Assembly (NCBI GenBank): GCA_963674745.2
Contig: CAXXDV010000003.1
Span: forward strand, 2,464,001-2,528,000
From: Desulfosudaceae bacterium
GTDB lineage: Bacteria; Desulfobacterota; Desulfobacteria; Desulfobacterales; Desulfosudaceae
DNA length: 64,000 nucleotides
Direction: 5' to 3'
The translations under genes and the position numbers were made by a program. Below the pieces are notes generated by a model, which saw only the letters and a list, made by a program, of their open reading frames with translations, searched no databases and was not told where the DNA came from. Shown piece by piece: positions 9,768 through 62,954 of this stretch (position 1 is its first letter; each line of letters opens with the position of its first letter).

Positions 9768-9809
9768 TTTAATACGCCTCCTTCATTTTATCTCCATGGT
9801 CCTTGCGCT

Positions 9810-11300: not shown

Positions 11301-11330
11301 TGAAATATCCGGGCGAACCCGGTTATTTCA
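11301..11330. repeat. Palindromic REP/MITE-end sequence
   Basis: TGAAATATCCGGG-CGAA-CCCGGTTATTTCA; same motif family as 25390-25693, 40768-40797 and 54509-54534. Confidence 0.55.
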
Positions 11331-11443
11331 CGAAAAGAGGTTTGCTTGACATTACCCGCCAGCCACGCTAGTAATAGTTCACGGCCAATATCGACTTTAA
11401 GGACATAAACACATAACGACTGAATCACCTGACCGGAATCTTC

Positions 11444-21263: not shown

Positions 21264-21349
21264 GCCGAAGTGGTGGAACTTGGTAGACACGCTATCTTGA
21301 GGGGGTAGTGGGGCGACCCGTGCCGGTTCAAGTCCGGCCTTCGGCACCA
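21264..21349 (+). tRNA. tRNA-Leu (GAG)
   Basis: GCCGAAG...CTTCGGC-ACCA acceptor stem, anticodon arm CTATC-TTGAGGG-GGTAG, long variable arm, GGTTCAAGTCC T-arm. Confidence 0.95.
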
Positions 21350-25693: not shown

Positions 25694-25721
25694 AGGCACC
25701 CTTAATGTCTGCATCCATTTT

Positions 25722-25778
25722 TTCACAAAATGTCAAATCATATTCACATATGATCAATACATAGGTATTAAATATGGT
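25722..25778 (+). promoter_or_regulatory. Conserved island promoter/operator, copy 1
   Basis: TTCACAAAATGTCAAATCATA-TTCACATATGATCAATAC...TATGGT; 21-bp tandem repeat, -10-like hexamer at +51. Confidence 0.8.
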
Positions 25779-25868
25779 TTACGCTATTTATTCAAAGGGC
25801 CCTTTTTTCCCCTTTTTGAGAACTTCTGTCATGTGCTATTTTCTTTACAACCTGTTTTGAGGAAAACG

Positions 25869-26129
25869 ATGGAATATCAATCAAAGGCAACAGACCTTAT
25901 CAGAAACCGCTGTTCCTGGCGCAGTTTTGGCAGCAGGGCCGTAGAAACGGAAAAAAGAAAGAAACCGGCCGGCAGTGCGGATATGCAGCGCCTTGATATG
26001 GGGATCGCAATGTGTCATTTTGAGCTTGCCGCAGAAGAAGTGAACCTTGAGGGGGAATGGATCGAAACAAAACCGGCTTTGGCATTGCCCAAAAGATGCG
26101 AATATCTGGTGAGCTGGAAGGAAAATTGA
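25869..26129 (+). pseudogene. Internally deleted nitroreductase-family gene
   Basis: N-terminal LIRNRCSWRSF joined almost directly to C-terminal DMQRLDMGIAMCHFELAA; 86 aa, centre missing. Confidence 0.7.
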
Positions 26130-26168: not shown

Positions 26169-28565
26169 ATGGCTTTAGAAAAAAAACATGTCGTCTGCAG
26201 CATGTGTGATCAGGCCTGCAGCCTGGAAGCCCATGTCAGGGACGGACGATTGGAAAAACTACGCGGGTTTTCAGACCACCTGATGATGCCCAAAACCATT
26301 TGCTGCAAACCGGTCTATGCCGCTGAATGGTATTACAATGAACACCGCCTGAAATATCCCTTGAAACGAACCGGAGAAAGAGGCAGCGGCCAGTGGACCC
26401 GCATCAGCTGGGACCAGGCCATGGATGAAATCGCGGCAAAGCTTCAAAAGGTGGTTGATCAACATGGGCCGGAAGCTTTTGCCTGCTCCACCTCGGATCA
26501 TAATCTCCAGATGGGCAGCGGCATGGTCCGGCGGTTCATGAACCTTTTGGGAAGCCCGAATTACATCAGCGGCGTAAGCCTTTGCCAGGGCAATACGGCT
26601 GCCGTCAACAGCATGACCTGCGGCGGTTATCCTTTTCCGGATTATGAACAGACCCGCTGTATGGTATTTTTCGGGCATAATCTCCGGCCGAATTCCTGGG
26701 CCGGCGAATACTATCGTCTGAAAGCGGCCAGGGCCAGAGGCGCCAGGCTGATTGTTCTGGACCCGAGAAAGAGTCATTGCGCTAAAATGGCCGACATTCA
26801 TCTGCCTTTGCGGGCAGGCACAGACGCGGCCATGTGCCTGGGCTGGATCAACGTTATTATTGAAGAAGAGCTGTACGAAAAGAAATTCGTATCCCGCTGG
26901 TGTGTGGGTTTTGATGAACTCAAAGAACGGGCCAAAGAATACCCGCTGGATCGGGTGTCCCAAATCACGGGGGTTCCCGCGAACCTGATCCGTGAGGCCG
27001 CCATCATGTATGCCACCAACACGCCGGCCATTATTCCCTGGACATGTGCTACCGACCAGCAGCTGAACAGCACTTCCGCCCTGCGCTGCCAGGCCATACT
27101 GCGGGCATTGACCAACAGCCTGAATGTTCCCGGAGGGGACGTCCTGGTCGACCCCAACAAGATGATCATATCCGAGTCGGAACTGGAACTCCACGAACGG
27201 CTGCCCCAGGAAAAAAAAGACCTGCAGCTGGGGGCAAAGGATTATCCGGTCATGACCTATTGGGGGCAGCAGGCCTTAAACGAGCCCCGGCGCAGGGTAT
27301 GGGGCCATCCCTACCGGAACCTGATGAAAGGCATGTACATGGCCCACCCTCCGGCTGTATTTAAAGCCATGCGGGAGGGCGTTCCCTACCCGGTAAAAGC
27401 CCTTTTCTCCATCGCCAACAACACCCTCATGTGCTACACCAACCAGCAGGGCATTTTCGAGGCCATTAAGAATCTTGACCTGTTTGTGGTCAATGACCTG
27501 TTCATGACGCCCACCGCCCAAATGGCCGACTACGTGCTTCCAGGCGACTGTTTTCTGGAACGGCCTGTCCTGTACAATTATCAGGAGTGGCTCAGTACCT
27601 ATTCGAGTTTCGAAAAAGCCGTTGAACCACCCGGTGAGTGCAGGGATGTGTATTATTTCCTGCGCGAACTGGCCGTGCGTATGGGCATGGAAGAACACTT
27701 CCCCTGGAAGAACGTTGAAGAACTTTACGAATGCCGGATCTCCGGGACCGGGCTTACCTGGAAGGCGCTTTCAAAAAACCTTCCTTTTCTAACGGCACCC
27801 GCTCCTCCAATGCCTCCCGGCGCAATGAAGCTTACCCTGAAACTCTTTTCCAAAATGGGCCTTTTGCCGTTATTAAGAAACGGTATGACTTCCATGTTGC
27901 GCCAACACCAGAAAACCCGGGAGTTTTTTGAACGCCGCGGCATGAAACGTATGGCCCGCCTTTTCAGGGATAATTTTGTGCTCGTTCCCTACCCGCACGA
28001 AAAACGGGGCTTTGCCACCCCCAGCGGGAAAGTGGAGCTGTATTCCAGTGTTTTGGAATCCATTGGCTGCGACCCGCTTCCCTACTGGAAGGAGATTTAT
28101 CCCCCGGACGAAAACCCGTCGGAAGAAGAATATCCGCTCCGCCTTTTTGTCGGCCTGCGTGAAGATGGATATTTTCTCTCTGCCGGACGCCATGTCAAAA
28201 AACTGCGCCAACGCAACCCCGAACCACAGGCCATGATGAATACCCAAACCGCCCGAAAATCCGGCATCAATGATGGTGACTGGATTTATGTGGAAACCGA
28301 CTGGGGCAGGACAAAAATGAAAGCACAGCTGAGCGAGGACATACAAAAGGACCTGGTCGGGGTCCGCCACGGATGGTGGAAGCCGGAAATGGCCCCTGGC
28401 ACCCCTGAACTCTGCGGGGCCTGGGATTACTCGGACGGCGTCCTGCTAAACGATGATCCGGCGTTTTTTGACCCGGAACAGGGCCTGCCCGACCTGCGCG
28501 GCGCCAGGAAGTGCCGGGTAATGCCGATGGAAAATTTGCCTGAAAAAGAGGAACAGCAGGCGTAA
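26169..28565 (+). CDS. Acetylene hydratase-like W/Mo-bisPGD enzyme (DMSO reductase family)
   Basis: KKHVVCSMCDQAC...ICCK [4Fe-4S] motif, RRFMNLLGSPN...CQGNTA, ATPSGKVELYSS, GLRED, DPEQGLPDLRG closely track the Pelobacter acetylenicus acetylene hydratase sequence as recalled; no Tat signal. Confidence 0.82.
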   Translation: MALEKKHVVCSMCDQACSLEAHVRDGRLEKLRGFSDHLMMPKTICCKPVYAAEWYYNEHRLKYPLKRTGERGSGQWTRISWDQAMDEIAAKLQKVVDQHGPEAFACSTSDHNLQMGSGMVRRFMNLLGSPNYISGVSLCQGNTAAVNSMTCGGYPFPDYEQTRCMVFFGHNLRPNSWAGEYYRLKAARARGARLIVLDPRKSHCAKMADIHLPLRAGTDAAMCLGWINVIIEEELYEKKFVSRWCVGFDELKERAKEYPLDRVSQITGVPANLIREAAIMYATNTPAIIPWTCATDQQLNSTSALRCQAILRALTNSLNVPGGDVLVDPNKMIISESELELHERLPQEKKDLQLGAKDYPVMTYWGQQALNEPRRRVWGHPYRNLMKGMYMAHPPAVFKAMREGVPYPVKALFSIANNTLMCYTNQQGIFEAIKNLDLFVVNDLFMTPTAQMADYVLPGDCFLERPVLYNYQEWLSTYSSFEKAVEPPGECRDVYYFLRELAVRMGMEEHFPWKNVEELYECRISGTGLTWKALSKNLPFLTAPAPPMPPGAMKLTLKLFSKMGLLPLLRNGMTSMLRQHQKTREFFERRGMKRMARLFRDNFVLVPYPHEKRGFATPSGKVELYSSVLESIGCDPLPYWKEIYPPDENPSEEEYPLRLFVGLREDGYFLSAGRHVKKLRQRNPEPQAMMNTQTARKSGINDGDWIYVETDWGRTKMKAQLSEDIQKDLVGVRHGWWKPEMAPGTPELCGAWDYSDGVLLNDDPAFFDPEQGLPDLRGARKCRVMPMENLPEKEEQQA

Positions 28566-28585
28566 ACATTTTTTTGGAGGCGTCC

Positions 28586-29401
28586 ATGACCCAGCGCTTT
28601 AAAGATAAAACAACCATAATTACCGGCGCGTCTTCAGGGATTGGCGCGTCTGCCGCCAGGCAGTTTATCATAGAGGGTGCCAATGTTGCCCTTATTGCCC
28701 GCAACAAAGACAATCTTGATAAAATAGTTGAGCAAATGGGCAGTGAAAAGGCCATTGCCATTTCTGCGGACGTCACGGATCTTGATAAAATGTCAGCCGT
28801 TCTTCAACAGGTGAAAAAACATTTCGGCGCCATTCACATACTGGTCAATAACGCCGGCTTCAACTCCAGGGGTCCGATAGACACCCGGCCGCTGGATGAA
28901 GTGCTGCACATAGTTGACCTGAACTTAAGGTCACCGATAGCGCTTACCAGGCTTGTACTGCCGCTAATAAAAGAAGCCGGAGCCGGAGCCGTGGTAAATG
29001 TCGCTTCGCTGGCGGGTCGATATCCCCTGCCGGATGAGGCGACCTACAGTGCAACAAAATTCGGGTTAAGGGCCTTTACCTATGCCCTGGCAGAAGAAAA
29101 CAGGGGGACAGGGGTGACGGTTTCCGTTGTCTCTCCCGGCCCGGTAGATACAGGGTTTATTATGGAAGATATTGATGACGTTCCGGACCTTGTTTTTTCA
29201 CAACCCATGAGTTCCCCCGAACAGATCGCCGCTGCTATTCTGGATTGCGCCTGTGACGGGAAGGTGGAAAGGGCAATACCCAGGTTAAGCGGTTATTTAA
29301 CCACAGCAGGTTATCTCTTTCCCGGCCTTCAGCGAAAGTTAAGGCCTATATTAAAAAGGAAAGGGCGTAAAAACAAGTTGAGATATAAGGCCAGGGCTTA
29401 A
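28586..29401 (+). CDS. SDR oxidoreductase
   Basis: TGASSGIG, NNAG, YSATK; ATG 28586 after GGAGG. Confidence 0.9.
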   Translation: MTQRFKDKTTIITGASSGIGASAARQFIIEGANVALIARNKDNLDKIVEQMGSEKAIAISADVTDLDKMSAVLQQVKKHFGAIHILVNNAGFNSRGPIDTRPLDEVLHIVDLNLRSPIALTRLVLPLIKEAGAGAVVNVASLAGRYPLPDEATYSATKFGLRAFTYALAEENRGTGVTVSVVSPGPVDTGFIMEDIDDVPDLVFSQPMSSPEQIAAAILDCACDGKVERAIPRLSGYLTTAGYLFPGLQRKLRPILKRKGRKNKLRYKARA

Positions 29402-29480
29402 TTATGGTTTACGTTGTTTGTTCAAATGCCCTTTCTTTTTAAACATTTACCCTTATCCTTTAAAAAAGTGTGGTTGAGTA

Positions 29481-29675
29481 ATGAACGCAGACAGCCTTAA
29501 CGGGTTGGTGGCTATTTTGCCGACACCATTTACCGATGACGGTAAAATCGACGAAAACGGTTTAAAGCGACTGGTCAGAGCCGCCATTAAGAAACAGCTT
29601 GATGGTGTTGTCGTTCTGGGAAGTAATGTAGCGTTTCCCTTGGCGGAGCCGCAATACATATGGAACCCGCTGTGA
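29481..29675 (+). pseudogene. Truncated 5' duplicate of the DapA-like aldolase gene
   Basis: 29479-29640 is nearly identical to 30341-30502, then diverges. Confidence 0.85.
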
Positions 29676-29766
29676 TGTCGGAACGACCAAGGAGAACGAA
29701 TATGATTGATTTTTGTAGTGGAAACAGCTATAAAGGCAATATGAAAAGGGTTTTACGGGGGTCGAC

Positions 29767-29955
29767 ATGAACATCAACAGAACAGTTAATAAATATAAGC
29801 TGGAAGAACAGCCCAGCGATTTCGCTTTCTGGCAAACCCGGCCATGCCAGGAACGAATTGCCGCTCTGGAAGAGATCCGCCGGGATTATCATGCCTGGAA
29901 ATACCATGTTGAGCCGGGATTTCATAGAGTTTATCGAATCGTTAAACAGTCATAG
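29767..29955 (+). CDS. Small hypothetical protein overlapping a nucleotidyltransferase gene (TA-like partner)
   Basis: 62 aa, D..FW......ERI.ALE.IR pattern; overlaps the next ORF. Confidence 0.6.
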   Translation: MNINRTVNKYKLEEQPSDFAFWQTRPCQERIAALEEIRRDYHAWKYHVEPGFHRVYRIVKQS

Positions 29956-30343
29956 CGTCCGTTATCTGGTGGTGGGCGGATATGCCGTGGCTTTTCACGG
30001 TTACCCCCGGTACACCAAGGATCTGGATGTCTGGATCGACCGGACCCCGGAGAACGCTGCTTGCCTTATGAAGGCGCTGACCGCCTTCGGGTTCGGCTCG
30101 GTTGGTCTCACAGTTGATGACTTTCTCCGGGAAGACTATGTCATTCAACTCGGATACCCGCCCAACCGTATCGACATCCTGACCAGCATCAAGGGGCTCG
30201 TGTTCGTTGAATGTTATGGCGCCGGAGTCCAGGAGGAAATCGGCGCTGTTACAGTCAACTTCATCGATATCGACAACCTGAAAAAAAACAAACAAGCCAG
30301 TGGCCGGCCCCAGGATCTGGCGGACATCGAAAATCTGAAATAA
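29906..30343 (+). CDS. Nucleotidyltransferase (DUF6036-like)
   Basis: YLVVGGYAV..HG..R.TKDLD, NK.ASGRPQD..D; start set at ATG 29906. Confidence 0.8.
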   Translation: MLSRDFIEFIESLNSHSVRYLVVGGYAVAFHGYPRYTKDLDVWIDRTPENAACLMKALTAFGFGSVGLTVDDFLREDYVIQLGYPPNRIDILTSIKGLVFVECYGAGVQEEIGAVTVNFIDIDNLKKNKQASGRPQDLADIENLK

Positions 30344-31314
30344 TGAATGTAGATAGCCTTAACGGGTTGGTGGCTATTTTGCCGACACCATTTACCGATG
30401 ACGGTAAAATCGACGAAAACGGTTTAAAGCAACTGGTCAGAGCCGCCATTGAGAAGCAGCTTGATGGTGTTGTCGTTCTGGGAAGTAATGCAGAGTTTCC
30501 CTATCTCCGTTTTGAAGAAAAAATACAGGTCATGGAAATTGCCGCTTCGGCAGCAAACGGAAAAATCCCTGTTATTGGTACGGCATCGGCCTGGAGTACA
30601 GATCAGGCGATTGATCTTGCAAAAGAGGCAAAAGCAGCAGGCTGCGATGCGCTTATGGCGGCGTTACCCGTTTATTTCAACCTTGACTTGAAAAATGTTG
30701 TGCACCATTTTAAATCCCTCACCAAAGCAATGGACCTGCCCGTTTATTACTACCATTTTCCTGATGTAACCGGTTTGAAAATACGGCCAAAAGACCTTGC
30801 CCGGATTGCGGAAATCGATGGCATTGTCGGGACAAAACTGACCGTTATGAACCGCCCGTTTTTAAAGAAAACGATTGACGCCACACGGCCTTATGACTGG
30901 AAAGTGTTTACCGGGGCATCATTGCTTCTTTATGACTGTCTCGAATTTGGTGGTGCCGGTGTGTTTTGTCCGATACCGCTTGTCGGGACTGAGGATGTCA
31001 GGATGTTATGGGACGCTTTTTCCTCGGGTGATTATAAAAAAGCAAAACAGATTCAGAAGAAACTGCTCAAAACGATCCCCCTGTTCACCGGTTCTTCACT
31101 GCCACCTGCAATTCTATCTCTCGGCTTTCAGTTTATGGTTCGACTGCCTTTTTTATCGGGCAAAAGACCTTTTGCCACTCACGGGTTATTGAAAGAAGCT
31201 TTGAGATTGCAGGGATATCTGGCCAGCAACAAAGTGAGAAGACCCCATGTTGAAGTCAGTCAGGCAGAGCAAAAGCTTGTTGAAAAAACACTGGCGTCGT
31301 TTGGGTGGCTATAG
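30343..31314 (+). CDS. DapA/NanA/HOGA family class I aldolase
   Basis: LPTPF, LGSNAEF, YYYHFP, GIVGTK Schiff-base Lys; true start ATG 30343. Confidence 0.85.
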   Translation: MNVDSLNGLVAILPTPFTDDGKIDENGLKQLVRAAIEKQLDGVVVLGSNAEFPYLRFEEKIQVMEIAASAANGKIPVIGTASAWSTDQAIDLAKEAKAAGCDALMAALPVYFNLDLKNVVHHFKSLTKAMDLPVYYYHFPDVTGLKIRPKDLARIAEIDGIVGTKLTVMNRPFLKKTIDATRPYDWKVFTGASLLLYDCLEFGGAGVFCPIPLVGTEDVRMLWDAFSSGDYKKAKQIQKKLLKTIPLFTGSSLPPAILSLGFQFMVRLPFLSGKRPFATHGLLKEALRLQGYLASNKVRRPHVEVSQAEQKLVEKTLASFGWL

Positions 31315-31345: not shown

Positions 31346-32506
31346 TTATGGAATCGGCGATAATTTTTCAATATAATCAGAATTTAATTTATTAATGTCA
31401 TTACACCCGATCAATGCCATTACCCGTTCCATTTCTTCTTTCAAGATCGAAAGCGCCCTGTCTACCCCTTTTTCTCCCCCGGCGGCCAATCCATATAAAT
31501 AGGCCCTGCCAATCATGCAGGCATCGGCGCCCAGGGCGATCGCTTTAATAATATCAGACCCTCTGGTAATGCCGCCGTCAATCAGTATCTCGAGTTGATC
31601 CTTTACGGCCTCTTTTACCTTTGGTAAAAGTTCTAAAGCCGTGGGGGCGCCGTCCAGCTGCCGGCCGCCATGATTCGATAACACGATGCCGCTGGCACCG
31701 ATATCAACGGCCTTTTTTGCATCTTCTACCGATTGTATTCCTTTTAAAAGGAAGGGGCCGTCACCCCAGTAGTCTTTTATTTCTCTGGCATCTTTCCATG
31801 AAACAGACGGATCGTACTGGCCATTAATTGTATCAACTACTTTTTGCACATCACCGCCATGGGGTAAATACCCGGTCATATTTCCCATAACCAGTTTGGG
31901 AGATGTTAAAAACCGGAATAACCATTCTGGTCTTGCGAGAGAGGATAAAACCATGTTTATTTTTAAGCGGGGGGTTCCATGACCGTGATGAATATCACGT
32001 TCTCTTTTACCCAGAACCGGTGAATCTACCGCTAAATAAATACCCTTGTACCCGGATGTTTTGCAGCGGTCTAAAAACCTGTACACCCAGTCCCTGTTAT
32101 GCCAGATATATATCTGAAAAAACAAGTCCCCGGTTGATACGGCTGCCGTATCTTCTATAGAAGTAGTAGAAACGGTTGACAGGGTATAGGGAATCTGGGC
32201 TTTACTGGCAGCTTTGACAACCGCTTGTTCGCCTTTATAGTGGAAGAGACGGGAAAATCCGGTAGGCGCCAGGATTACAGGCAGCGCGCTATCCCTGCCA
32301 TTTATCCTGGTTTGCAGGTTAATTGTCGTAACATCTTTCAATACGCTTGGCCGAAAACCATATGTTCTGAAAACCGAACTGTTCCGCTGCATTGTAATTT
32401 CATCTTCAGCCCCGCCGTCAATGTAGTCGAAAGTGATACGTGGAATACTTTTTTTGGCAAGAGTCCGTAAATCATTTATGGAAACACAACGATCAACATT
32501 TTTCAC
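31346..32506 (-). CDS. FMN-dependent alpha-hydroxy acid dehydrogenase/oxidase (LldD family)
   Basis: FDYIDGGAEDE, LAPTG, FQIY, SNHGGRQLD, DGGI.RG.D. Confidence 0.92.
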   Translation of the reverse strand: MKNVDRCVSINDLRTLAKKSIPRITFDYIDGGAEDEITMQRNSSVFRTYGFRPSVLKDVTTINLQTRINGRDSALPVILAPTGFSRLFHYKGEQAVVKAASKAQIPYTLSTVSTTSIEDTAAVSTGDLFFQIYIWHNRDWVYRFLDRCKTSGYKGIYLAVDSPVLGKRERDIHHGHGTPRLKINMVLSSLARPEWLFRFLTSPKLVMGNMTGYLPHGGDVQKVVDTINGQYDPSVSWKDAREIKDYWGDGPFLLKGIQSVEDAKKAVDIGASGIVLSNHGGRQLDGAPTALELLPKVKEAVKDQLEILIDGGITRGSDIIKAIALGADACMIGRAYLYGLAAGGEKGVDRALSILKEEMERVMALIGCNDINKLNSDYIEKLSPIP

Positions 32507-32523
32507 AGCCTGACTCCAGTTTT

Positions 32524-32730
32524 TTATTTATCTTTAATATCCTTTAATACTGAAAAAATGCCGCTGAAATAAGTCACTCCGACAAAAAACCACATAACAC
32601 ACAATCCGACAATACTTTTTAGTTCTTCTTTTGGAAATGGTTCCCAGACATGTGTTTCCCACATAAAGTATGTGATAATCGGGGTCGGAATGATGAATAA
32701 TAGAAACGGAATCAGGTACTTGAATTTCAT
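32524..32730 (-). CDS. Small membrane protein (2 TM)
   Basis: Two hydrophobic segments, AAGGA RBS, in operon. Confidence 0.55.
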   Translation of the reverse strand: MKFKYLIPFLLFIIPTPIITYFMWETHVWEPFPKEELKSIVGLCVMWFFVGVTYFSGIFSVLKDIKDK

Positions 32731-32885
32731 GCTAAAATCCTTTTTATTGGTTGTTTTCGTTGTCTTAGAATTTACGCGAGCGTGTCTTTGGCTGAAGAGG
32801 AGATCGTTTCATCAATCGTCAATGTCCCGGATTCATCTATTCTTCTCCGTGTCATCCATTGTGAGAATTACCGGGGGAATAATCT

Positions 32886-33500
32886 CTAACCTACATCAAT
32901 ACTTCTAAAGCCGCTTAACTTCTCCAGTCTTCCAAGAAAATGATAGGCAAACCCGAATGGTTTGAATCGAACACCCAGCATGCTGAAACTGATCAGCTCG
33001 ATAATTGTTTGGGTTTCAGAGAGTGTATCCATATAGGCAAAATCAACAGCAATAGGCCATGTTTGTATTTTCCCTCTTACCCAAGTGGGATACCCTGCTG
33101 CGTTCAAACTTTCCATTTCTTTATCAACATCTTTAACTAAGAGCCCCAGGTGCTGAGCCACTGTCCTGCCTTCAGGATCAAGGCTTTGCTTGTAAAAGTC
33201 TGAGCCTTCACCCGGCTCAAGAAGTTCGAGGTCAACCCCCTGATATTTGGCCAGACCGACCTTCCCGCGAAAGCTTCTCGGTGTACCGTGCTCATCCCAT
33301 CGCGCGAGGCTACCGGCTGAAATGAAAAACGGCCCGATTCCCATCATTTCAAGCCGTTTAGCAGCTTCTTCCACGTCTGGCACTACCAGGCCGAGTTGAT
33401 GTATTTGAGGCAGGCTGTGTTTCTCTCGAAATTCGGCTGCAAGGTTATTGACAGATTTTTTAAAGTTCTCTGCCGCAAGCAGGTCGTCTAAAAGCAACAT
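32886..33500 (-). CDS. VOC/glyoxalase-like (methylmalonyl-CoA epimerase-like) protein
   Basis: HQLGLVVPD, LELLEP, QHLGLLV, IIELI. Confidence 0.78.
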   Translation of the reverse strand: MLLLDDLLAAENFKKSVNNLAAEFREKHSLPQIHQLGLVVPDVEEAAKRLEMMGIGPFFISAGSLARWDEHGTPRSFRGKVGLAKYQGVDLELLEPGEGSDFYKQSLDPEGRTVAQHLGLLVKDVDKEMESLNAAGYPTWVRGKIQTWPIAVDFAYMDTLSETQTIIELISFSMLGVRFKPFGFAYHFLGRLEKLSGFRSIDVG

Positions 33501-33611
33501 TGGTTCCCCTAATTTTTTTTAGTCATTTATGGCGATATGCCCGGAAGCCCCCTGTTTCAGGCGAGAACAATTCATTCAGCAGGGTGTCGGTTGTCTCTTC
33601 TTCAGGGCCTA

Positions 33612-34646
33612 TTAATTTAGGTTCTCCAGAGTCCGGGCGATTATAATATTCACGACCCTGTCGTTTATTTCCCCTTCACTTATTACTAATTCATAGAGTT
33701 CCAGATCATCTATAAGCGCACTGATGAACTTTTCATCTGAAACCGCTTTTGCCAGTATCGTTTTGTCTTTACGGTCTGCAATATGGGTTTCAACAAGTTT
33801 GGCAAACATGGGAGTTTTAACGTATTTTTTTGTAATAGCCCTTGCTGTTTTCTTCGTGCCTTCTTTTGAAGGACCGGATTCAATTGCGATCATCATTAAC
33901 TCGTTATCTGAAGTAAGAAAATCAAGGATCGCTTCATCCTTATATGTCTGCTTTGCACGATTTCGTATGCTCGTTCGGGCCACGTCAATATTATCAGGAT
34001 GTAATGGGTCAGCATTATAATATTTATCGTTTTTAACAAATTCTTCCAGGTTTTCTAATATCTTGCGGGGGATCTTTGCCAGCTCACCATTCACCATAAA
34101 TGCTTTCAGGTTGCCCCCTGTTTCCAAATGGATGGAAAATATAACCTCGGTTTTATCATGGGCTTTATAAGACATGTTAATCTGTTGATACATTTTGGGA
34201 AGGCGCACATATTCCTCTTTATCCGGTATTTCAGGATCAGTAATGAGTTGTGATGTTGTCGTTATGTCACCGGTTTCAAGGGCAACAGAAGTCTTCGCAC
34301 TGATAATGGCATCCCGGTCATCTGCCGGCCAGGGGAAGTCCATGACCATGTACAGATCCATGTCATTCGAGTTGTATTGCCTGAGAACTTTTGAGCTTAT
34401 TACGCCATCCATCCATTCCTTCATTACCGGTGTGTCCCTAAGGACTGCACCGATCGCTGCCATGCTGGCATTGATAACTGCAGTGGCCTTGAATGCCTTG
34501 TATCTCGAGCCTTCAACATCTCGTGAGTAGGTTATGATACCATCATTATCTTTTTCAATTTCCCAATCAACAGCACCTGTTGCCGGCTGCAAAAGAAGCG
34601 CTAAGGTAAAACAAATGATACCTGTGTATACGCTTAAATTTTTCAT
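33612..34646 (-). CDS. Secreted START-domain lipid-binding protein
   Basis: Signal peptide; W.IEKDNDGI..YSR, KAFKA, W, FPWPADDRD START motifs; helical C-terminal extension. Confidence 0.75.
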   Translation of the reverse strand: MKNLSVYTGIICFTLALLLQPATGAVDWEIEKDNDGIITYSRDVEGSRYKAFKATAVINASMAAIGAVLRDTPVMKEWMDGVISSKVLRQYNSNDMDLYMVMDFPWPADDRDAIISAKTSVALETGDITTTSQLITDPEIPDKEEYVRLPKMYQQINMSYKAHDKTEVIFSIHLETGGNLKAFMVNGELAKIPRKILENLEEFVKNDKYYNADPLHPDNIDVARTSIRNRAKQTYKDEAILDFLTSDNELMMIAIESGPSKEGTKKTARAITKKYVKTPMFAKLVETHIADRKDKTILAKAVSDEKFISALIDDLELYELVISEGEINDRVVNIIIARTLENLN

Positions 34647-34704
34647 AATAGTTCCTTATACTTTTGTGTGGTGGTGCTGATCCTGAAGCAATGGCAGGGG
34701 GTTT

Positions 34705-35547
34705 CTATTTCATAGCTTTTTCGGGTAATCGGATTTTATTCATTACTAACCCTGTTATGATATAATTAAGCACCGGGCTCAGCCTTGACATGATATCCAT
34801 GAATTTCGCGTCCATCCCTACCATAAGTCTTTTTTTATTTTTAATTATCGCTCTTACGATCTTCTCCGCGCATTCTTCAGGTGTTGTTCTGAAAATAATA
34901 TCGGAAGACTTCACAAGATATTCTTTATTCATATTTTCATTAACACCCTTCACAAAACGCATATTTCTGGCAATATTGGTTTTAATCCCCCCGGGGTGAA
35001 CCGACGTGACATGAATGTTACTTGTCCTTAGTTCCTGGACCAGGGTCTCATTAAACCCCCTTACCGCGTATTTAGCACTGTTGTAGGGGCCGTTATGCGG
35101 GAAAGGCACCACGCCGTTAATACTCGAGATATTGACAATATTTGCTTCAGGGCGTTTCCTTAAATGCGGCAGAAACGCCTTGGTGCCATACACCACCCCC
35201 CAAAAAACAATGTTAAAACACCATTCAAAATTTTCATAAGAAATGTCTTCCAGGCTGTCGTGGACAGCTACGCCGGCATTATTGATGATAATATCAACCT
35301 GGCCGTGTTCATGCACAACATAATCAGCCCACTCAACCACCTGTTCTCTGTCTGATACATCGAGGGTAAACGTGCTGACCTTAATACCGCTTACTTTAAT
35401 CATATCAGCCGTCTTTTTCAGTTCATCTTCATTAATATCTGAAATAGCCAGATGGCACCCCCTGGCCGCAAGGTTTAACGCAAGGCACCGGCCGATTCCG
35501 GATCCGGCGCCTGTAATTGCCGCTACTTTATTCTTCAAGTTTTTCAT
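34705..35547 (-). CDS. SDR oxidoreductase
   Basis: TGAGSGIG, NNAG, YNSAK, HPGGI; ATG 35547 with AGGAG RBS. Confidence 0.9.
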   Translation of the reverse strand: MKNLKNKVAAITGAGSGIGRCLALNLAARGCHLAISDINEDELKKTADMIKVSGIKVSTFTLDVSDREQVVEWADYVVHEHGQVDIIINNAGVAVHDSLEDISYENFEWCFNIVFWGVVYGTKAFLPHLRKRPEANIVNISSINGVVPFPHNGPYNSAKYAVRGFNETLVQELRTSNIHVTSVHPGGIKTNIARNMRFVKGVNENMNKEYLVKSSDIIFRTTPEECAEKIVRAIIKNKKRLMVGMDAKFMDIMSRLSPVLNYIITGLVMNKIRLPEKAMK

Positions 35548-35569
35548 AATGCTATGGTTCTCCTTTTTT

Positions 35570-36610
35570 TTAAAGCAGCTTGTCACAGAGAAACGACACC
35601 TGGTCCTTGACGATGGTTTCGAAAAACTCGCCCACGTAGATGTCGAAATGGCCGGCGTCGTAAACGCGGACGTCCACGTTGGGCAGGCCTTTCGCAAAGT
35701 CGATGGTGGGACCGGCAGGGGCCACCGAGTCTTTGGAACTCACACAGATGAGGGCGGGACATTTGAGATGGCGCATGTATTTGCCCGGCACGTCGAGACC
35801 GATGCGCAGGGCGAATCTGCCCGCCACGCCATTGGCCGAATGCGTTCCTGTGGGCAGCCGCATGCTCCCCACGAACCGGGTCGTTTTCTCCTGTTCTTCA
35901 AAATCACCAAGTGAAACGTGGGCCGGCAGCTCGATGCGCTTGCTCGCGAAAAGTTTATAAAGTCTTGAGAGCTGCGCTGAAAATGTCGTGCCCGGCGGCA
36001 GCAGCGTGAGAATGCCTTTGACTACATCCGGCGCGGTCATTAATGCCGGTGTACCCGGAGTGCCCACGAGGGGTACGAGCAGCGGCTTGAACCCCACCCA
36101 GGCCATTAGCTGGTCGATGATGGCTATTGTACCGCTTCCCAGCATGCTCATAATTCCCAGTGCGCGCACCGAAGCGGGACCGCTCGTAAAAGGGCATTGG
36201 GAAATCACCGCGGCCACACCTCCGTCCTCGGCCCCCACCTTGATTACATGTCCTCCCGAAAAGGACGTGCCAAACAGGGCGATGCGCTCCGTGTCGATGA
36301 AAGACAGGGAGCGAGCGTATCTCAGCGCCGCGTGCCAGTCCTGCCGTTGCCGTTTGATGTCGAGCAGGTACCGGGGATTTCCCTCGCTGGAGCCGAAATG
36401 CCGATAGTCAAAAACAAGGGCCGCAAAACCCGCCTGGCTGAAACGCTCTGCATAGGCGTCCAACCGCATCTCGCGGATAGAGCCCAGGCCATGGGCCAAA
36501 ATAACCAGCGGCGCCCGCTCTATCCCCTCCGGGCGATAAAGCCAGGCGCTGCACCTAATTCCCAGGGATTCAAACGAAACATCTGTCCTGTTAAAGATAT
36601 GAGAAGACAT
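35570..36610 (-). CDS. Alpha/beta hydrolase
   Basis: AHG, FDYRHFG.S.G.PR, GTSFSGG nucleophile elbow, D and GHF. Confidence 0.85.
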   Translation of the reverse strand: MSSHIFNRTDVSFESLGIRCSAWLYRPEGIERAPLVILAHGLGSIREMRLDAYAERFSQAGFAALVFDYRHFGSSEGNPRYLLDIKRQRQDWHAALRYARSLSFIDTERIALFGTSFSGGHVIKVGAEDGGVAAVISQCPFTSGPASVRALGIMSMLGSGTIAIIDQLMAWVGFKPLLVPLVGTPGTPALMTAPDVVKGILTLLPPGTTFSAQLSRLYKLFASKRIELPAHVSLGDFEEQEKTTRFVGSMRLPTGTHSANGVAGRFALRIGLDVPGKYMRHLKCPALICVSSKDSVAPAGPTIDFAKGLPNVDVRVYDAGHFDIYVGEFFETIVKDQVSFLCDKLL

Positions 36611-36626
36611 GCGATCCCTCTTAAAA

Positions 36627-37451
36627 TTATTCCATCAATTTTTTAAATGCAGCGCCTGTCCACATAACCATTCTAATGGGAAAAATCCGGGAAGCCAGGT
36701 CCATCAGTCGGGCGTCTACGCCCACCATTATTCGTTTTTTATTTTTTTTTATGCCGGCAATAATGATCCTGGCGGCTTTTTCCGGTGAGGTTTTAGCGAT
36801 CCGTGAAAAATTCTCGGCAGCCCCGGCCTGATCCTGGCTGCCGGTTGCTGAGTGGTAGAAACGGGAGTTTGACACGATATTGGTGTTGATACCCCCGGGG
36901 TGAACGCTGCTGACATAAACGCCGGTACCGGCCAGTTCCTGCATCAGGGTTTCGCTGAAGGCCCGCACCGCATATTTAGACATGTTGTAAGGGCCGTTGT
37001 GGGAAAAGGGGATCATGCCGTTGATGCTGGAAATATTGACGATATGACCTTTTCCGCGTTTTTTCAGCAGGGGCAGAAAGGCCCGGGTGCCATACACAAC
37101 GCCCCACATGTTGATGTTGATGAGCCATTCAAAATCTTCGTAAGAGACGTTTTCAAGGGATTCAGTAACAGCGACCCCGGCGTTGTTGATAATCACGTCC
37201 ACTCCGCCGTGATGTGCCGCCGCGTCATCGGCATACCGGTACACCTGTTCCCGGTTTCCCGTGTCCACCAGGTGCGTGCTGATGGATGCGCTCAGCCCGC
37301 CGGCCATCCGGGCGGTTTCCTCGAGCCCTTTTTCGTTGATGTCCGACAACGCCAGCCGGCAGCCTTCCTGCGCCAGCCGCATGGCCAGCGCCCGGCCGAT
37401 CCCCGAACCCGCACCGGTAATGGCAACCACCTTGCTTTCCAGTGATTCCAT
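36627..37451 (-). CDS. SDR oxidoreductase (paralog of 34705-35547)
   Basis: TGAGSGIG, SSINGMIPFSHNGPYNMSK. Confidence 0.9.
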   Translation of the reverse strand: MESLESKVVAITGAGSGIGRALAMRLAQEGCRLALSDINEKGLEETARMAGGLSASISTHLVDTGNREQVYRYADDAAAHHGGVDVIINNAGVAVTESLENVSYEDFEWLININMWGVVYGTRAFLPLLKKRGKGHIVNISSINGMIPFSHNGPYNMSKYAVRAFSETLMQELAGTGVYVSSVHPGGINTNIVSNSRFYHSATGSQDQAGAAENFSRIAKTSPEKAARIIIAGIKKNKKRIMVGVDARLMDLASRIFPIRMVMWTGAAFKKLME

Positions 37452-37489
37452 CGTTTATCCTTCTCATTTATTATGTCTAGAGATTTATT

Positions 37490-38332
37490 TTAATTCTGCT
37501 CATGAGTCGATGTTAAATACATCTTAATATTTTCCGCCTTGGAATAAGTTCCATATAAAGGGATTCCTTGTGGTATAAGGTTTTTGCCTGGCTCAGCATC
37601 CCCAATCATAATTCGGATACTTCCTCTTATATTTGTCGTAGAAGGTTGCTTTTGATCTTTAGGATCAGTTCCAGGCCTTCCAGATACAGATCTCACAGTG
37701 ATAACCCTTGGCCCTATTGATGGCGGTTTAAGGAGGAAGAGGGGACCGTCCATTGGCCATTCTTGGGTTATCCATACAGGTGCTGGTATTTGTTCAGGTG
37801 TAAATTCAAGGCGGATTCTTGTTTGGCCCTTATCGACAACTTCTCCTGTCCAGGAATTTCCTGATTGCTTCAGCGTTACGCTATCAGCAAGATATTTGGG
37901 ATGCCCCATGGTACGTCCGGCCCAAACTGGTACCCACTTGCTTTCCGGCATCGTAAGACAATACCAGCCCGCTTCACCTTTATAGGAACATCGGATCTTA
38001 ATATATGCGAGTTGGTAAGGGGTGAGCGGCCATGGCCCGACCTCAATATTATCCAAAACACCTACCATTACCATGGGATGATCGGGCATATTAAATTGCT
38101 CAGGCAGAAGTTTTCTGTAAAGGGTTAAGTCTTTCGGTTCAACCAGAGCAGTTATATTTTGTTGTGCTCTAAAATTATTTTGCGTTGAAGCGGCCATATG
38201 CATAGCTTTTTCTGCAAGATCGCCTTCAATTATCGAATACTGCCCGTTGGCGGTACGATTGTAAAAGAAAATCGATAAACCTAACAATATAATCAAAGAA
38301 AGACATCCCATTACTAATAGCTTTTTTTTCAT
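37490..38332 (-). CDS. Acetoacetate decarboxylase-like superfamily protein with N-terminal anchor
   Basis: LRKLLP-like segment, Y...M, AGRTMGHPK Schiff-base Lys motif; N-terminal TM/signal. Confidence 0.65.
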   Translation of the reverse strand: MKKKLLVMGCLSLIILLGLSIFFYNRTANGQYSIIEGDLAEKAMHMAASTQNNFRAQQNITALVEPKDLTLYRKLLPEQFNMPDHPMVMVGVLDNIEVGPWPLTPYQLAYIKIRCSYKGEAGWYCLTMPESKWVPVWAGRTMGHPKYLADSVTLKQSGNSWTGEVVDKGQTRIRLEFTPEQIPAPVWITQEWPMDGPLFLLKPPSIGPRVITVRSVSGRPGTDPKDQKQPSTTNIRGSIRIMIGDAEPGKNLIPQGIPLYGTYSKAENIKMYLTSTHEQN

Positions 38333-38389: not shown

Positions 38390-38446
38390 ACCATATGTGA
38401 CCGCTAAGTATTGACCATATGTGAATATAATTTGACATTTTGTGAA
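38390..38446 (-). promoter_or_regulatory. Conserved island promoter/operator, copy 2
   Basis: Minus strand TTCACAAAATGTCAAATTATA-TTCACATATGGTCAATAC...TATGGT, facing the 38332 gene run. Confidence 0.8.
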
Positions 38447-38560: not shown

Positions 38561-39610
38561 CTAAAAGGAATGATTCTGCCGGTACTCACCGGGGGTAAAA
38601 CCCGTCCATTTTTTAAATGCCCGGTTAAACGCACTTTGCTCGGAGTAGCCGAGCAGGAATGTAATATCGATAATAGGTATGGGGGATTGTTCGAGCAGCT
38701 GTATGGCGTGCTCTCTTTTTACCTTATCCAGTATGTCCTGATATGTTACGCCTTCTTTGTTTAACTTGATCTGAAGGCTTCTTTTGCTCATGGCAAACTG
38801 ACCGGAAATGGTTTCTATGTCTGTCTTCCCGGAAAGCAAATTCTGAATGATGGCGGTTTCAACCTCTCCGGAAAACAGGTCTTCACGATATATCTTTTTT
38901 TGAAGTTTTTCAGCATATGACTTAAGCGTGTCGAGGATTTCAGCATTGGCGACCAGGACAGGAAGATCCAGATACTTTTTATTAAAGGTCATCTTATTTT
39001 CCGGCTGATTGAACAGCACGGGTATTTTAAAAATACGGTCATGCTCTTTCGTGTCTGTTGGAGACGCATGAATAAACTGAACGCTGTCAAGACTGATCTC
39101 TTCCCCGGTCAGGCGGGTTAACAGATTAATATAATATGCAAAATGGCCTTCAATAAATTGTCGAAGTTCATTCATATCGGTAATTTGATATTGCAATTCA
39201 AGAGACAGGGATGCAGTACTTCCTTTCTCGGAGAACACAGGTATGCATAAATCATGCATCAGGGGGTAATACTTGCAGAAATTGGTCAATGCTTCTCCAA
39301 GGGTTGGAGAGTTAAACGTGATCACATGCATGGCGTCCATAACATAATCGAATACTTCTCCTAGGTGCAGCCCTAAATCGGGGTCATGAATGAGATTCAG
39401 GAGTTCAGTTGCCAAATAGTGACACTTATGGGCGGGTAACCGCTCATTAGGGGCCTTAAGTATATCTGGATCAAAACCCATTCTTTTAAAAAATATCAAG
39501 GGATCAATACCAAACCTGTCTCCCTCCTTGATAAGTATATTAATAAAATCAACCGAAACACTCGGTTCTTTTATGGATCGGGTTCGGCTTTCAGTCAACT
39601 CATTCGACAT
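38561..39610 (-). CDS. AraC family regulator (OruR/Arabinose_bd_2 type)
   Basis: GLHLGE, SPTLGEAL, C-terminal LLGYSEQSAFNRAFKKWTGFTPGEYR; start set at ATG 39610. Confidence 0.92.
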   Translation of the reverse strand: MSNELTESRTRSIKEPSVSVDFINILIKEGDRFGIDPLIFFKRMGFDPDILKAPNERLPAHKCHYLATELLNLIHDPDLGLHLGEVFDYVMDAMHVITFNSPTLGEALTNFCKYYPLMHDLCIPVFSEKGSTASLSLELQYQITDMNELRQFIEGHFAYYINLLTRLTGEEISLDSVQFIHASPTDTKEHDRIFKIPVLFNQPENKMTFNKKYLDLPVLVANAEILDTLKSYAEKLQKKIYREDLFSGEVETAIIQNLLSGKTDIETISGQFAMSKRSLQIKLNKEGVTYQDILDKVKREHAIQLLEQSPIPIIDITFLLGYSEQSAFNRAFKKWTGFTPGEYRQNHSF

Positions 39611-39706
39611 ATTCGATCTCTTCTTGATGGCATGTTGGTCTGTTTTTCTAAAAATACGCCGCACTTATTATTTTCAGGATATCAATCTATATTTTAAATT
39701 CATTTT

Positions 39707-39763
39707 TTCACAAAATGTCAAATCTTATTCACATTTGGTCAATACACAGGGTTCAAATATGCT
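39707..39763 (+). promoter_or_regulatory. Conserved island promoter/operator, copy 3
   Basis: TTCACAAAATGTCAAATCTTA-TTCACATTTGGTCAATAC...TATGCT. Confidence 0.8.
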
Positions 39764-40833: not shown

Positions 40834-40890
40834 TTCACAAAATGTCAAATCATATTCACATCTGGTCAATACTTAGAGCTCAAATATGTT
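40834..40890 (+). promoter_or_regulatory. Conserved island promoter/operator, copy 4
   Basis: TTCACAAAATGTCAAATCATA-TTCACATCTGGTCAATAC...TATGTT. Confidence 0.8.
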
Positions 40891-40943
40891 CTAGGGTAAT
40901 CATACAACCGAGCTTTTTTACAAATTGGAATAAGGAGAGCCTC

Positions 40944-41765
40944 ATGTTTAAAAACAAAACCATACTCATCACCGGCGGGTCATCCGGGCTTGGACTGGGG
41001 TTGGCTCAGGCACTTTTAGAAAGAGGCGCGCGCCTGATTCTTCTGGCCCGCACGCCAAAAAAACTGGAACAGGCAAAAGAGCGCCTGCTGAAAAACGTTC
41101 CCAACGGAAATGTAGATATCGTCCCCGTGGATGTAAGCGACCGCGAGACGTTGCACGAAGCGCTTGACGATGCTCTGAAAAGGCACCCCTCCCTGGACAT
41201 GGTCATCAACAATGCCGGGATATTAAGGGAAGGTTATTTTGAAAAACTGGCGGTAACGGATTTTGAAGAGATGTTCGGCGCCAACTACTTCGGCTGTCTA
41301 TATATAACGCGGATCACCCTGCCTTACTTGAAAAAATCCCGGGGCCGCCTGATCAACGTTGCATCTGTGGCGGGATTAACCGGCGGATTTGGACTTTCCG
41401 CATACGGCTCATCCAAATACGCGCTTGTTGGATTATCTGAAACATTACGCTGCGAACTAAAGCCACAGGGTGTTACCGTCCAGGTGGTATGCCCCCCGGA
41501 ATTTCTATCTCCCATGGTTGAGGAATTGGATACCTATCGGACACCGGAAAACCTGGCGCATACAATTATGATTCCCAGGCTGTCCCTGGATACTCTGGTG
41601 AAAGATACAGTAAAAGGCATTGAAAAAAACAAATTCAGGATTATCCCCGGCTGGCGGACACGATTGATGCTTCTCGGGGCGCAGCACTTTCCCGGTATCA
41701 GCCGTTTTTTTGCCGACCGGGTAATCAAAAAAGCCTATGTCGGTCCCGACCAGCATAATGGTTGA
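40944..41765 (+). CDS. SDR oxidoreductase (3-ketodihydrosphingosine reductase-like)
   Basis: ITGGSSGLG, NYFG, GLSAYGSSK, CPPEF.SP; ATG 40944 after AAGGAG. Confidence 0.85.
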   Translation: MFKNKTILITGGSSGLGLGLAQALLERGARLILLARTPKKLEQAKERLLKNVPNGNVDIVPVDVSDRETLHEALDDALKRHPSLDMVINNAGILREGYFEKLAVTDFEEMFGANYFGCLYITRITLPYLKKSRGRLINVASVAGLTGGFGLSAYGSSKYALVGLSETLRCELKPQGVTVQVVCPPEFLSPMVEELDTYRTPENLAHTIMIPRLSLDTLVKDTVKGIEKNKFRIIPGWRTRLMLLGAQHFPGISRFFADRVIKKAYVGPDQHNG

Positions 41766-45517: not shown

Positions 45518-45518
45518 C

Positions 45519-58821: not shown

Positions 58822-58878
58822 TTCACAAATTGTCAAATCATATTCACTTATGGTCAATACATAGCGCTCAGATATGGT
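58822..58878 (+). promoter_or_regulatory. Conserved island promoter/operator, copy 5
   Basis: TTCACAAATTGTCAAATCATA-TTCACTTATGGTCAATAC...TATGGT. Confidence 0.8.
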
Positions 58879-62239: not shown

Positions 62240-62736
62240 TCCCCTTTTGAGAACTTCTGTCATGGGCTATTTTTTTACAACCTGTTTTGAGGAGGGATGC
62301 GATGGACTATCAATCAAAGGTGACAGACCTTATCAGAAACCGCTGTTCCTGGCGCAGTTTTGGGGACCGGGCCGTAGAAACGGAAAAAAGAAAGAAACAG
62401 AACCGGATTTAGCATTGCCCAAAAGATGTGAGTATCTGGTGAGCTGGAAGGGGATTTGAACAGTACGGCGACAATGCCTGAACTTCGGGAGCAAGAAAAA
62501 ATGCCTTTGGAAAAAAAACATGTCGTATGCAGCATGTGTGATCAGGCCTGCAGTCTGGAAACGCATGCCAGGGACGGACGGTTGGAAAAACTGCGCGGGT
62601 TTGCAGACCATCTGTTGATGCCCAAGACCATTTGCTGCAAACCCGGGGAGGCTGCTAAATGGTTTTACAATGAACATCGCCTGCTATACCCCTTGAAACG
62701 AACCGGAGAAAGAGGCAGCGGTATGGTCAGGCGGTT
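62240..62736 (+). pseudogene. Decayed duplicate of 25808-26536 (nitroreductase remnant + 5' part of the acetylene hydratase-like gene)
   Basis: Clear nucleotide similarity; MPLEKKHVVCSMCDQAC at 62501; two internal deletions; truncated. Confidence 0.9.
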
Positions 62737-62954
62737 ATCCGTTTCCAGATCAAGGAAAGGCATCTATATTAAAAGGGAATAAACCCTTTTTGACCTTAAA
62801 ACGGGCCTTCTAAGCTGTTCCTTTGTCTGGCTCACGCCTTGAGACTATTTTTAAGCCCCCAAAAGCCCCTTATAAGTCGGTTTTCCCCTCATTTTTTGAT
62901 ATATTTCATCAACTTTTCAAAACGTTAGCCTGGTCCGACCCTGAAAGGGGCCTG

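Follow-up and report, generated by a model that had tools for sequence, protein, structure and literature searches.

Which reaction is catalyzed by a close relative of acetylene hydratase (AH) that keeps the catalytic residues of this enzyme but not the isoleucines of its substrate pocket? The question is raised by a gene in a stretch of 64,000 nucleotides (nt) from a Desulfosudaceae bacterium (contig CAXXDV010000003.1, positions 2,464,001 to 2,528,000), here called the window, to which all plain coordinates refer. To our knowledge, AH is the only non-redox enzyme among the molybdenum (Mo) and tungsten (W) enzymes and the only characterized member of a subfamily of thousands of sequences, and its mechanism is disputed. 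For the protein encoded in the window, P0001 (source genome, G000), comparison of sequences leads us to favor, with moderate confidence, an AH-type non-redox hydratase whose substrate is other than acetylene. The gene is:

26169..28565, plus strand: AH-subfamily enzyme P0001, 798 amino acids (aa), predicted to carry a [4Fe-4S] cluster and Mo or W held by bis-molybdopterin guanine dinucleotide (bis-MGD); from the open reading frame (ORF), Pfam, the Protein Data Bank (PDB) match and trees

At the place given in a first-pass annotation made from the letters of the window, the frame is uninterrupted for 798 codons from its ATG start, and a GGGAGG box about 7 nt 5' of the ATG provides a good ribosome-binding site. 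Pfam places an Fe4S4 domain (PF04879) at aa 7-47, a Molybdopterin domain (PF00384) at aa 60-502 and a Molydop_binding domain (PF01568) at aa 663-741. Among NCBIfam models, 27 match P0001 and none does so at its curated cut-off, the top model being PhsA (311 bits vs a cut-off of 694). In a PDB search, the best match was AH of Pelobacter/Syntrophotalea acetylenica (2e7z, EC 4.2.1.112; E 8e-215, 718.8 bits), followed by polysulfide/thiosulfate reductase (6.3e-69, 236 bits). The HMMER alignment to AH spans aa 5-542 and 611-779, the two proteins share their domain order, and the AH-specific stretch between domains II and III (query ~325-395) is aligned with no large gaps. No Tat (twin-arginine) motif was seen at the N-terminus (MALEKKHVVC...), and the genes flanking the AH-like gene in the window include no Fe-S or cytochrome b partner gene; AH likewise has neither signal peptide nor partner subunit. 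A cytoplasmic location is supported by these sequence features. PsrA/PhsA (2vpw) shares the superfamily fold and a Cys metal ligand with P0001, but it is a Tat-exported redox enzyme, bound to the membrane through partner subunits, and lacks an Asp behind cluster Cys number two.

If P0001 is a hydratase of the AH type, its catalytic residues are expected to be in place. Residues were mapped by HMMER alignment to AH chain 2e7z_A, in which the chain index plus 3 gives the AH numbering. Three segments of P0001 are central to the comparison:

26196..26219, plus strand: CSMCDQAC (aa 10-17), with cluster cysteines C10, C13 and C17, the catalytic-type Asp14, and Gln15 at the place of AH Ile14; translation, alignment
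26580..26597, plus strand: LCQGNT (aa 138-143), with the metal-ligand Cys139, and Gln140 at the place of AH Ile142; translation, alignment
27810..27986, plus strand: clade-specific insert, aa ~548-606 (~59 aa), basic and amphipathic, between the Molybdopterin and Molydop_binding domains; BLASTP, HMMER, MAFFT

The [4Fe-4S] ligands of AH (C9, C12, C16 and C46) pair with C10, C13, C17 and C45 of P0001, AH D13 with Asp14, AH K48 with Lys47, and AH M140-C141-I142 with L138-C139-Q140. Around the pocket, W179, W293 and F611 of AH correspond to W177, W291 and F669. AH W472 aligns to Q472, but the loop is 2 residues longer in P0001 and Trp474, two residues on, fits the family-consensus Trp, so that two or three pocket Trp residues are held in common. 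The remaining motifs lie at C45-x-K47, NSW 175-177, IPW 289-291, ATPSGK 616-621 and GLRED 662-666. All motifs quoted in the first-pass annotation (CSMCDQAC, LCQGNT, NSW, IPW, ATPSGK and GLRED) are therefore present in the translation, and the retention that it had noted for the Asp, the Lys, the metal-ligand Cys and the Trp residues of NSW and IPW is borne out by the alignment. The conserved Asp that it pointed to does not distinguish this gene: Asp, cluster Cys, Lys and ligand Cys are present in 120/120 homologues (fragment P0012 left out), so their retention does not single out the AH-like gene. The metal-ligand Cys column is invariant in the 78 sequences aligned.

The catalytic-type Asp is expected to separate AH relatives from the rest of the superfamily if it is a mark of the subfamily. 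A word-indexed search returned 2962 proteins at E <= 1e-50 among 8000 scored candidates, the best 120 all being AH-like and ~720-810 aa long; an exhaustive search of 50%-identity representatives returned 17256 proteins at E <= 1e-3 and 1843 at E <= 1e-30. Among the best 43 of these representatives inspected, CxxCDxxC occurs in five (P0122-P0125 and P0131), four of which are the first four. Past this border, most representatives have another residue or no such motif and scores fall from 641 to 526 bits. Because the Asp motif drops away at the score border, it marks a distinct subfamily. An excerpt of a recent review likewise names Cys141 and Asp13 as hallmarks of the AH subfamily and calls the other members uncharacterized (PMC12096430; this and the other PMC sources below are used in excerpt).

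Two trees were computed, with FastTree on 62 rows and, quickly, with IQ-TREE on 37 rows, after a 50%-fill filter that removes the insert columns. AH is not among the rows, and proximity to it was judged by bit scores to 2e7z and not by an AH branch. The insert-bearing sequences (12 of 121) are monophyletic with support of 100 in both trees. They fall within a supported clade (99, 98) together with the insert-free P0013-17, P0020/22 and P0066/92, and stand apart from a large clade of Bradyrhizobium, Maricurvus and Parvibaculaceae proteins. Scores against 2e7z are 838 bits for P0014 of the insert-free sister group, 719 for P0001, 713 for P0008 of the insert clade, 710 and 706 for P0062 and P0037 of the large clade, and 646 and 607 for the basal representatives P0122 and P0124. 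These scores and the trees place P0001 in the AH-proximal part of the subfamily, yet not in AH's nearest group. Thus, the assignment of P0001 as a close AH homologue is upheld by the score gap (719 vs 236 bits), the Asp motif and both trees, from which AH itself is absent.

Hydratase function does not by itself fix the substrate, which is expected to depend on the pocket above the metal. The hydrophobic ring of the AH pocket reportedly comprises Ile14, Ile113 and Ile142 (Seiffert 2007). In P0001, these three positions are Gln15, His111 and Gln140. Both Ile-to-Gln changes of the first-pass annotation are real (I14 = Q15, I142 = Q140), and the remodelling that it proposed goes further than it saw, since I113 = His111 was missed and the whole triad has turned polar. 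The I-I-I triad of AH is found in 0/120 homologues, and the Q-H-Q triad in only two, P0001 and the 93%-identical P0002, as well as in the orthologue of the same-genus genome G002. The commonest triad of the large clade is I-W-A (77 of 120 homologues). Apart from the closest relatives of P0001, the insert clade has Leu, then Tyr or His, then Met or Phe, mostly as L-Y-M (6) or L-H-M (2). Because Q-H-Q is confined to the closest relatives, the polar pocket is a recent, lineage-specific state and not a property of the insert clade.

AH itself depends on tungsten and on strong reduction to hydrate acetylene to acetaldehyde, and experiments on it bear on what these changes may mean. In the excerpted text of one study, Asp13 is essential, an Ile-to-Ala pocket mutant loses most activity, and AH converts no ethylene, cyanide, nitriles or substituted acetylenes (PMC6013536); Ile113 and Ile142 are described as close to the AH site (PMC7970554, PMC6013536). 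This loss on Ile-to-Ala exchange and the narrow substrate range argue that the pocket sets specificity and that P0001 acts on a substrate other than acetylene. With the Ile triad changed to Gln15/His111/Gln140, P0001 most likely acts on an unsaturated compound that is larger than acetylene or forms hydrogen bonds, and not on acetylene itself. P0001 could instead be a genuine acetylene hydratase that forms acetaldehyde, its pocket changes and insert being neutral variation of the lineage. The very strong similarity to AH, the full set of catalytic-type residues and the AH-proximal place in the tree would fit this, and published HMM surveys would label such sequences AH (PMC7858054). We nevertheless regard this explanation as quite unlikely: a single Ile-to-Ala exchange causes marked activity loss in AH, whereas all three isoleucines have turned polar here, no acetaldehyde dehydrogenase or other acetylene-fermentation gene is seen in the operon, and the co-regulated genes described below (SDRs, that is, short-chain dehydrogenases, with ADC-like, thiamine diphosphate (ThDP) and glycyl-radical enzymes) form no C2 pathway.

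According to the favored reading, P0001 would be a stand-alone cytoplasmic AH-subfamily enzyme of the dimethyl sulfoxide (DMSO)-reductase (MopB) superfamily, with one [4Fe-4S] cluster and a W- or Mo-bis-MGD held by Cys139. The second-shell set of AH would be kept as Asp14, Lys47, Trp177, Trp291 and Trp474. Metal-bound water and Asp14 would act on an unsaturated bond in the pocket above the metal, and water would be added without net redox change, as in AH. With the whole catalytic set kept, the pocket isoleucines swapped and an insert added, P0001 is a natural specificity variant. Its substrate, once found, would show a role of the subfamily beyond acetylene and provide a second reaction for testing mechanism proposals.

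The insert is the other feature that sets P0001 apart from AH. By BLASTP against P0014, the nearest insert-free homologue, it sits between '...APAPP' and 'PYPHEKRGFATPSGK'; within the clade, it is flanked by '...APPP' and 'PYPHEKxGFATPSGK' and is ~59-60 aa long. The HMMER alignment is interrupted over query 543-610 (window 27795-27998), where the AH chain passes from 539 to 548. The place proposed in the first-pass annotation (27781-28005) fits these limits. Between query positions 535 and 618, 12 of the 121 sequences in a MAFFT alignment have 83-84 residues, 108 have 22-25 and P0092 has 46. As a linker between flanking aligned blocks, the same site holds 8 residues in AH, ~22 in PsrA and ~43 in FdhF.

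The composition of the insert is more constant than its sequence. The segment aa 543-610 contains 13 K+R vs 3 D+E, and no other part of P0001 reaches a helical hydrophobic moment as high as that of the insert (0.69 at aa 589), which agrees with its earlier description as basic and amphipathic. The net charge of the insert is about +10 in P0001 and +7 to +11 in 12/12 members, whereas the rest of P0001 is at -7. Its length, its charge, the periodicity of its hydrophobic residues and some invariant positions (PP, GLL, E..E..G, A, D) are kept although it changes at about twice the rate of the remaining protein (0.38 vs 0.75 mean pairwise identity over 45 pairs), with a dN/dS of 0.27-0.60 vs 0.21-0.25 for the whole gene in four comparisons. 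No transmembrane-grade window is present in the insert (best 19-aa Kyte-Doolittle mean, 1.03), and no Pfam family matches it, whether the whole protein or the insert alone is searched. Its Atlas look-alikes are DmsA and NarG domain V fragments (score 0.90, about 100 of 256 features), which provide a lead only. Membrane association, as proposed in the first-pass annotation, is one of several readings that a cationic amphipathic stretch with no transmembrane segment would allow; the insert may bind an anionic surface, either a membrane or a partner for which it forms a docking surface, or it may be a lid that caps the access tunnel.

The region upstream of the AH-like gene contains an element that recurs nearby. 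The operator-like element, the regulator gene and the transcription units behind the other copies are:

25722..25757, plus strand: operator-like element, two 15-nt half-sites TTCAC-N5-GTCAA in direct repeat, 21 nt start to start; pattern counts
31346..38332, minus strand: operon behind operator copy 2 (38411-38446, minus); domain matches
38561..39664, minus strand: AraC-family regulator with Arabinose_bd and HTH_18; domain matches
40834..40869, plus strand: operator copy before two SDR genes (40842-41765, 41898-42677); pattern
58822..58857, plus strand: operator copy before a 117-aa ORF, a ThDP enzyme (59501-61168) and an SDR (61184-62032); pattern

The copy at 25722 lies inside a conserved stretch of ~108 nt (25699-25806). 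Five copies of the 36-38-nt pattern are present in the window, where 100 shuffles gave an expectation of 0; seven are present in the 5.5-Mb genome, all within ~63 kb, and the reversed control gave 0. In the window the copies begin at 25722, 38411 (minus), 39707, 40834 and 58822, and beyond it at G000:C3:2537767 and 2552444. Copy 1 precedes the operon of a gene remnant, the AH-like gene and an SDR. The operon behind copy 2 encodes, in order, an ADC-like protein (no PDB relative by sequence), an SDR, an alpha/beta-hydrolase, a second SDR, a START protein, a glyoxalase-like protein and an FMN-dependent 2-hydroxyacid dehydrogenase; in G002, the operator is again associated with hydrolase, ADC-like, SDR and FMN_dh genes. 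The copy at 39707-39742 lies 43 nt upstream of the AraC gene, on the divergent side, and precedes a 266-aa ORF. Of the copies beyond the window, one precedes a 906-aa glycyl-radical enzyme with its activase and adjoins a 78%-identical AraC paralogue that is likewise arranged; the seventh copy precedes another SDR.

Direct repeats spaced by 21 nt, or two helical turns, are typical of AraC-family activators, araI/AraC being the paradigm. The regulator in the window resembles AraC/XylS-type activators in its Arabinose_bd and HTH_18 domains and in a candidate operator, a 21-nt direct repeat just upstream of both the targets and the regulator gene. Its NCBIfam matches, QhpR, GliR and CypR, are all below their cut-offs. 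The operator was found 26-72 nt upstream of all four AraC homologue genes found, and upstream of the AH-like operon in all four genomes with an orthologue (G000, G002, G007 and G010). In the complete genome G007, its single copy precedes the AH-like operon; no AraC homologue was found in G007 at E <= 1e-40. No sigma-54 promoter motif of the GG-N10-GC type was seen when the element was read by eye. The AH-like operon is a candidate member of an AraC-type regulon via this shared operator, in which the activator would probably drive transcription of this operon and six others over ~63 kb through the 21-nt-spaced direct repeat. AH differs from P0001 in this respect, as the context of P0001 is an SDR-rich candidate regulon. 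Through this operator, a concrete and testable set of co-regulated genes is at hand for deducing the pathway.

The immediate neighbors of the AH-like gene provide a second view of its context, and they are in part disrupted:

25833..26129, plus strand: decayed remnant of a TM1586-type nitroreductase-like gene; PF14512 at 24 bits, below cut-off, and tblastn with the intact G007 protein
28574..29401, plus strand: SDR; likely start ATG 28587, after GGAGG
29479..30502, plus strand: inserted segment with a DUF6036-like ORF, between the SDR and the DHDPS-like gene, with 162-nt direct repeats at its ends; repeat analysis
30343..31314, plus strand: DHDPS/pyruvate-aldolase-family gene; start inferred from the 323-aa G002 orthologue, ORF listing from 30211
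62292..62782, plus strand: truncated second copy of the nitroreductase remnant and the first ~74 AH-like codons, a pseudogene fragment; 89-91% DNA identity, then divergent

The SDR starts 21 nt after the AH-like stop codon, behind GGAGG, so the two genes are probably co-transcribed. The 162-nt repeats (29479-29640 and 30341-30502) are 95% identical and bracket an 862-nt insertion. The DHDPS-like gene has its true 5' end in the second repeat, so that the first represents a duplicate of this gene start. In G002, of the same genus, the SDR (94%), the DHDPS-like gene (92%) and an FMN-dehydrogenase fragment follow past a 3.9-kb HEPN-containing insertion. However, neither the SDR nor the DHDPS-like gene lies beside the AH-like gene in the nine insert-clade loci first compared. 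The proposal that the product of P0001 feeds the adjacent SDR and aldolase therefore needs correction: the linkage is limited to the genus. Co-regulation gives some support to a pathway link with SDRs.

Elsewhere in the insert clade, the neighbors are of other kinds. Directly downstream of the gene, loci L012 and L083 encode an AraC-type regulator that is 74-83% identical to that at 38561-39664, followed in L012 by an SDR. The neighbors in the Actinomycetota loci are a GntR/FCD regulator and an SCP2-like gene, which is intact in L015 and reduced to a remnant in L014. In G007, an intact 285-aa nitroreductase-like gene (PF14512, 7.7e-30) overlaps the start of the orthologue; the remnant in the window keeps only residues 1-36 and 231-285 of this protein.

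Several points weigh against a non-redox hydratase with a new substrate. AH is the sole subfamily member with activity, metal or structure data, and Gln15, His111, Gln140 and the insert are placed relative to the tunnel by alignment alone. The triad varies among orthologues, with Q-H-M in the 89%-identical G007 orthologue and in P0004, and is possibly no strict determinant of specificity. The immediate gene neighbors differ between lineages, and we infer the binding of the AraC regulator to the repeat. Two further points hint at redox chemistry: a 2x[4Fe-4S] protein follows the gene in three Actinomycetota loci (L011, L014 and L015), and the sole co-transcribed partner in G007 is the intact nitroreductase-family flavoprotein.

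These last two points fit an enzyme with redox activity, for instance an anaerobic hydroxylase, dehydroxylase or reductase, that passes electrons via its [4Fe-4S] cluster to a soluble partner such as a flavoprotein or ferredoxin. Almost all other DMSO-reductase-family enzymes are redox enzymes, and an excerpted review proposes internal redox steps even for AH (PMC12096430). Neither candidate partner held up as a general one. The 2x[4Fe-4S] protein is confined to those three loci, and G000 has many paralogues, none near the gene. The nitroreductase-like gene, searched by tblastn in 82 loci, is beside the AH-like gene in G007 only, with remnants in G000, where it has decayed while the AH-like gene is under purifying selection. 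In the wider subfamily, 116 ORFs flanking 29 loci include no Fe-S or cytochrome electron-transfer subunit. P0001 also keeps the subfamily-specific Asp, which was rare among the representatives described above. A redox function therefore seems to us rather unlikely, and the AH-type hydratase with another substrate remains the favored explanation.

The rearrangements could also mean that the gene is decaying in a rearranging island and has no current function. Deletion has left only a remnant of the upstream gene, there is a truncated second copy at a distance of 36 kb, the 862-nt insertion splits the operon downstream, and the region begins after a tRNA-Leu gene. However, the frame runs intact through 798 codons and retains every key residue, the ribosome-binding site is good, and the whole-gene dN/dS, which is 0.21-0.25 against the three orthologues, indicates that the gene is maintained by purifying selection despite the decay of its upstream partner. 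Three RNA libraries, each from a different study, contain one contig apiece of 236-270 nt that is 98-99% identical to the gene, a weak hint given that DNA carry-over is possible. We consider loss of function highly improbable.

Of the 12 other genomes from the same family, three (G002, G007 and G010) have orthologues of at least 89% identity. A search of 28 same-order genomes yielded none; two of them have homologues of 41-42% identity. Members of the insert clade come from metagenome-assembled genomes (MAGs) labelled Thermodesulfobacteriota, Syntrophaceae, Spirochaetota and Actinomycetota. The dS to the Spirochaetota-labelled copy (L009) is only 0.40, close to the values for copies within the window's own family (0.24-0.27), which suggests recent horizontal transfer or spread, or a mis-binned contig.

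A more specific and more speculative proposal is that P0001 would be the first AH-family enzyme with a second substrate, a W/Mo hydratase whose substrate is an alkyne, allene or enol-type compound of polar or lipid-like character. The insert would dock P0001 to the surface of a membrane or lipid carrier or gate the tunnel, and P0001 would serve an AraC-controlled anaerobic pathway with a novel glycyl-radical eliminase, a ThDP lyase and many SDRs. Taken as a whole, this combination is an unlikely one that we put forward tentatively.

Few enzymes are available for comparison. In an excerpt of a 2021 enrichment study, only the AH of P. acetylenicus had been isolated (PMC7858054). The only other biochemically studied AH-related enzyme in the excerpted literature is MES, a metallopterin-dependent ergothioneine synthase, which was set aside as a close relative: its metallopterin module shares only 27% identity with AH and forms a fusion with a cysteine desulfurase (PMC9516567). 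Literature since 2023 that mentions AH, judged by title among the matches listed, characterized no new family member, and the sole match to 'acetylene hydratase-like' was an unrelated metagenomics paper. We found no earlier description of the insert clade or the operator in the literature searched. Metagenome pattern scans with the AH N-terminal motif returned 0 loci and then 12, none of them AH; in three, the motif lay inside ORFs and belonged to ETF-QO-like ferredoxin motifs.

The uncharacterized AH-subfamily proteins (~720-750 aa, CxxCDxxC) of Bradyrhizobium, Parvibaculaceae, other aerobes and anaerobe MAGs share the Asp, Cys and Lys residues and the stand-alone gene with P0001. They differ in having no insert, a triad that is mostly Ile/Trp/Ala, and HxlR/TetR and MobA-like neighbors. 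Among 29 large-clade loci (L016-L080), HxlR and TetR genes are each found in 8/29 and MobA-like genes in 7/29; no acetaldehyde-pathway gene was seen beside these stand-alone genes of aerobic Proteobacteria. The same 29 loci have an alpha/beta-hydrolase gene in six cases and a metallo-beta-lactamase-fold gene in six, and their HxlR/TetR genes are divergent.

Some further observations concern single loci. The glycyl-radical enzyme with its activase (G000:C3:2538143-2541888; L097 10143-13888) belongs to the PFL2/glycerol-dehydratase family, falls below all NCBIfam equivalog cut-offs and has an internal stretch of ~120 aa outside the family models; among PDB entries, it comes closest to B12-independent glycerol and diol dehydratases (412 bits). 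In the sister genus, locus L105 (G007:C1) 8549-11960 is a module of operator, nitroreductase-like gene and AH-like gene, flanked by restriction-modification genes. Proteins of the lipid-carrier type occur in two independent contexts, an SCP2-like protein (L015 9210-9773) encoded directly upstream of the Actinomycetota orthologue and the START-domain protein (33612-34646) of the co-regulated operon in the window.

In the window itself, tRNA-Leu (GAG) at 21264-21349 directly follows secG and is followed by Fic, a DUF4143 ATPase and the AH-like region, and may mark the border of an island. The DUF4143 ATPase is flanked by 177-nt repeats (23131/25073, 83% identical). At the Rfam gathering threshold, the window contained no molybdenum cofactor (Moco) riboswitch or other family, and even the tRNA-Leu was unreported. 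Downstream of 62292-62782 lies an ORF with no Pfam match. Its product may correspond to the C-terminal part of an IS91-type transposase. The stretch 43746-48545, which lies downstream of the SDR genes, encodes an unusual bc-type module made up of a Rieske protein, a cytochrome b with a fused 2x[4Fe-4S] domain, a multihaem cytochrome c, and an amine-oxidase/phytoene-desaturase-like flavoprotein that has a Tat signal and contains a rubredoxin-like insert.

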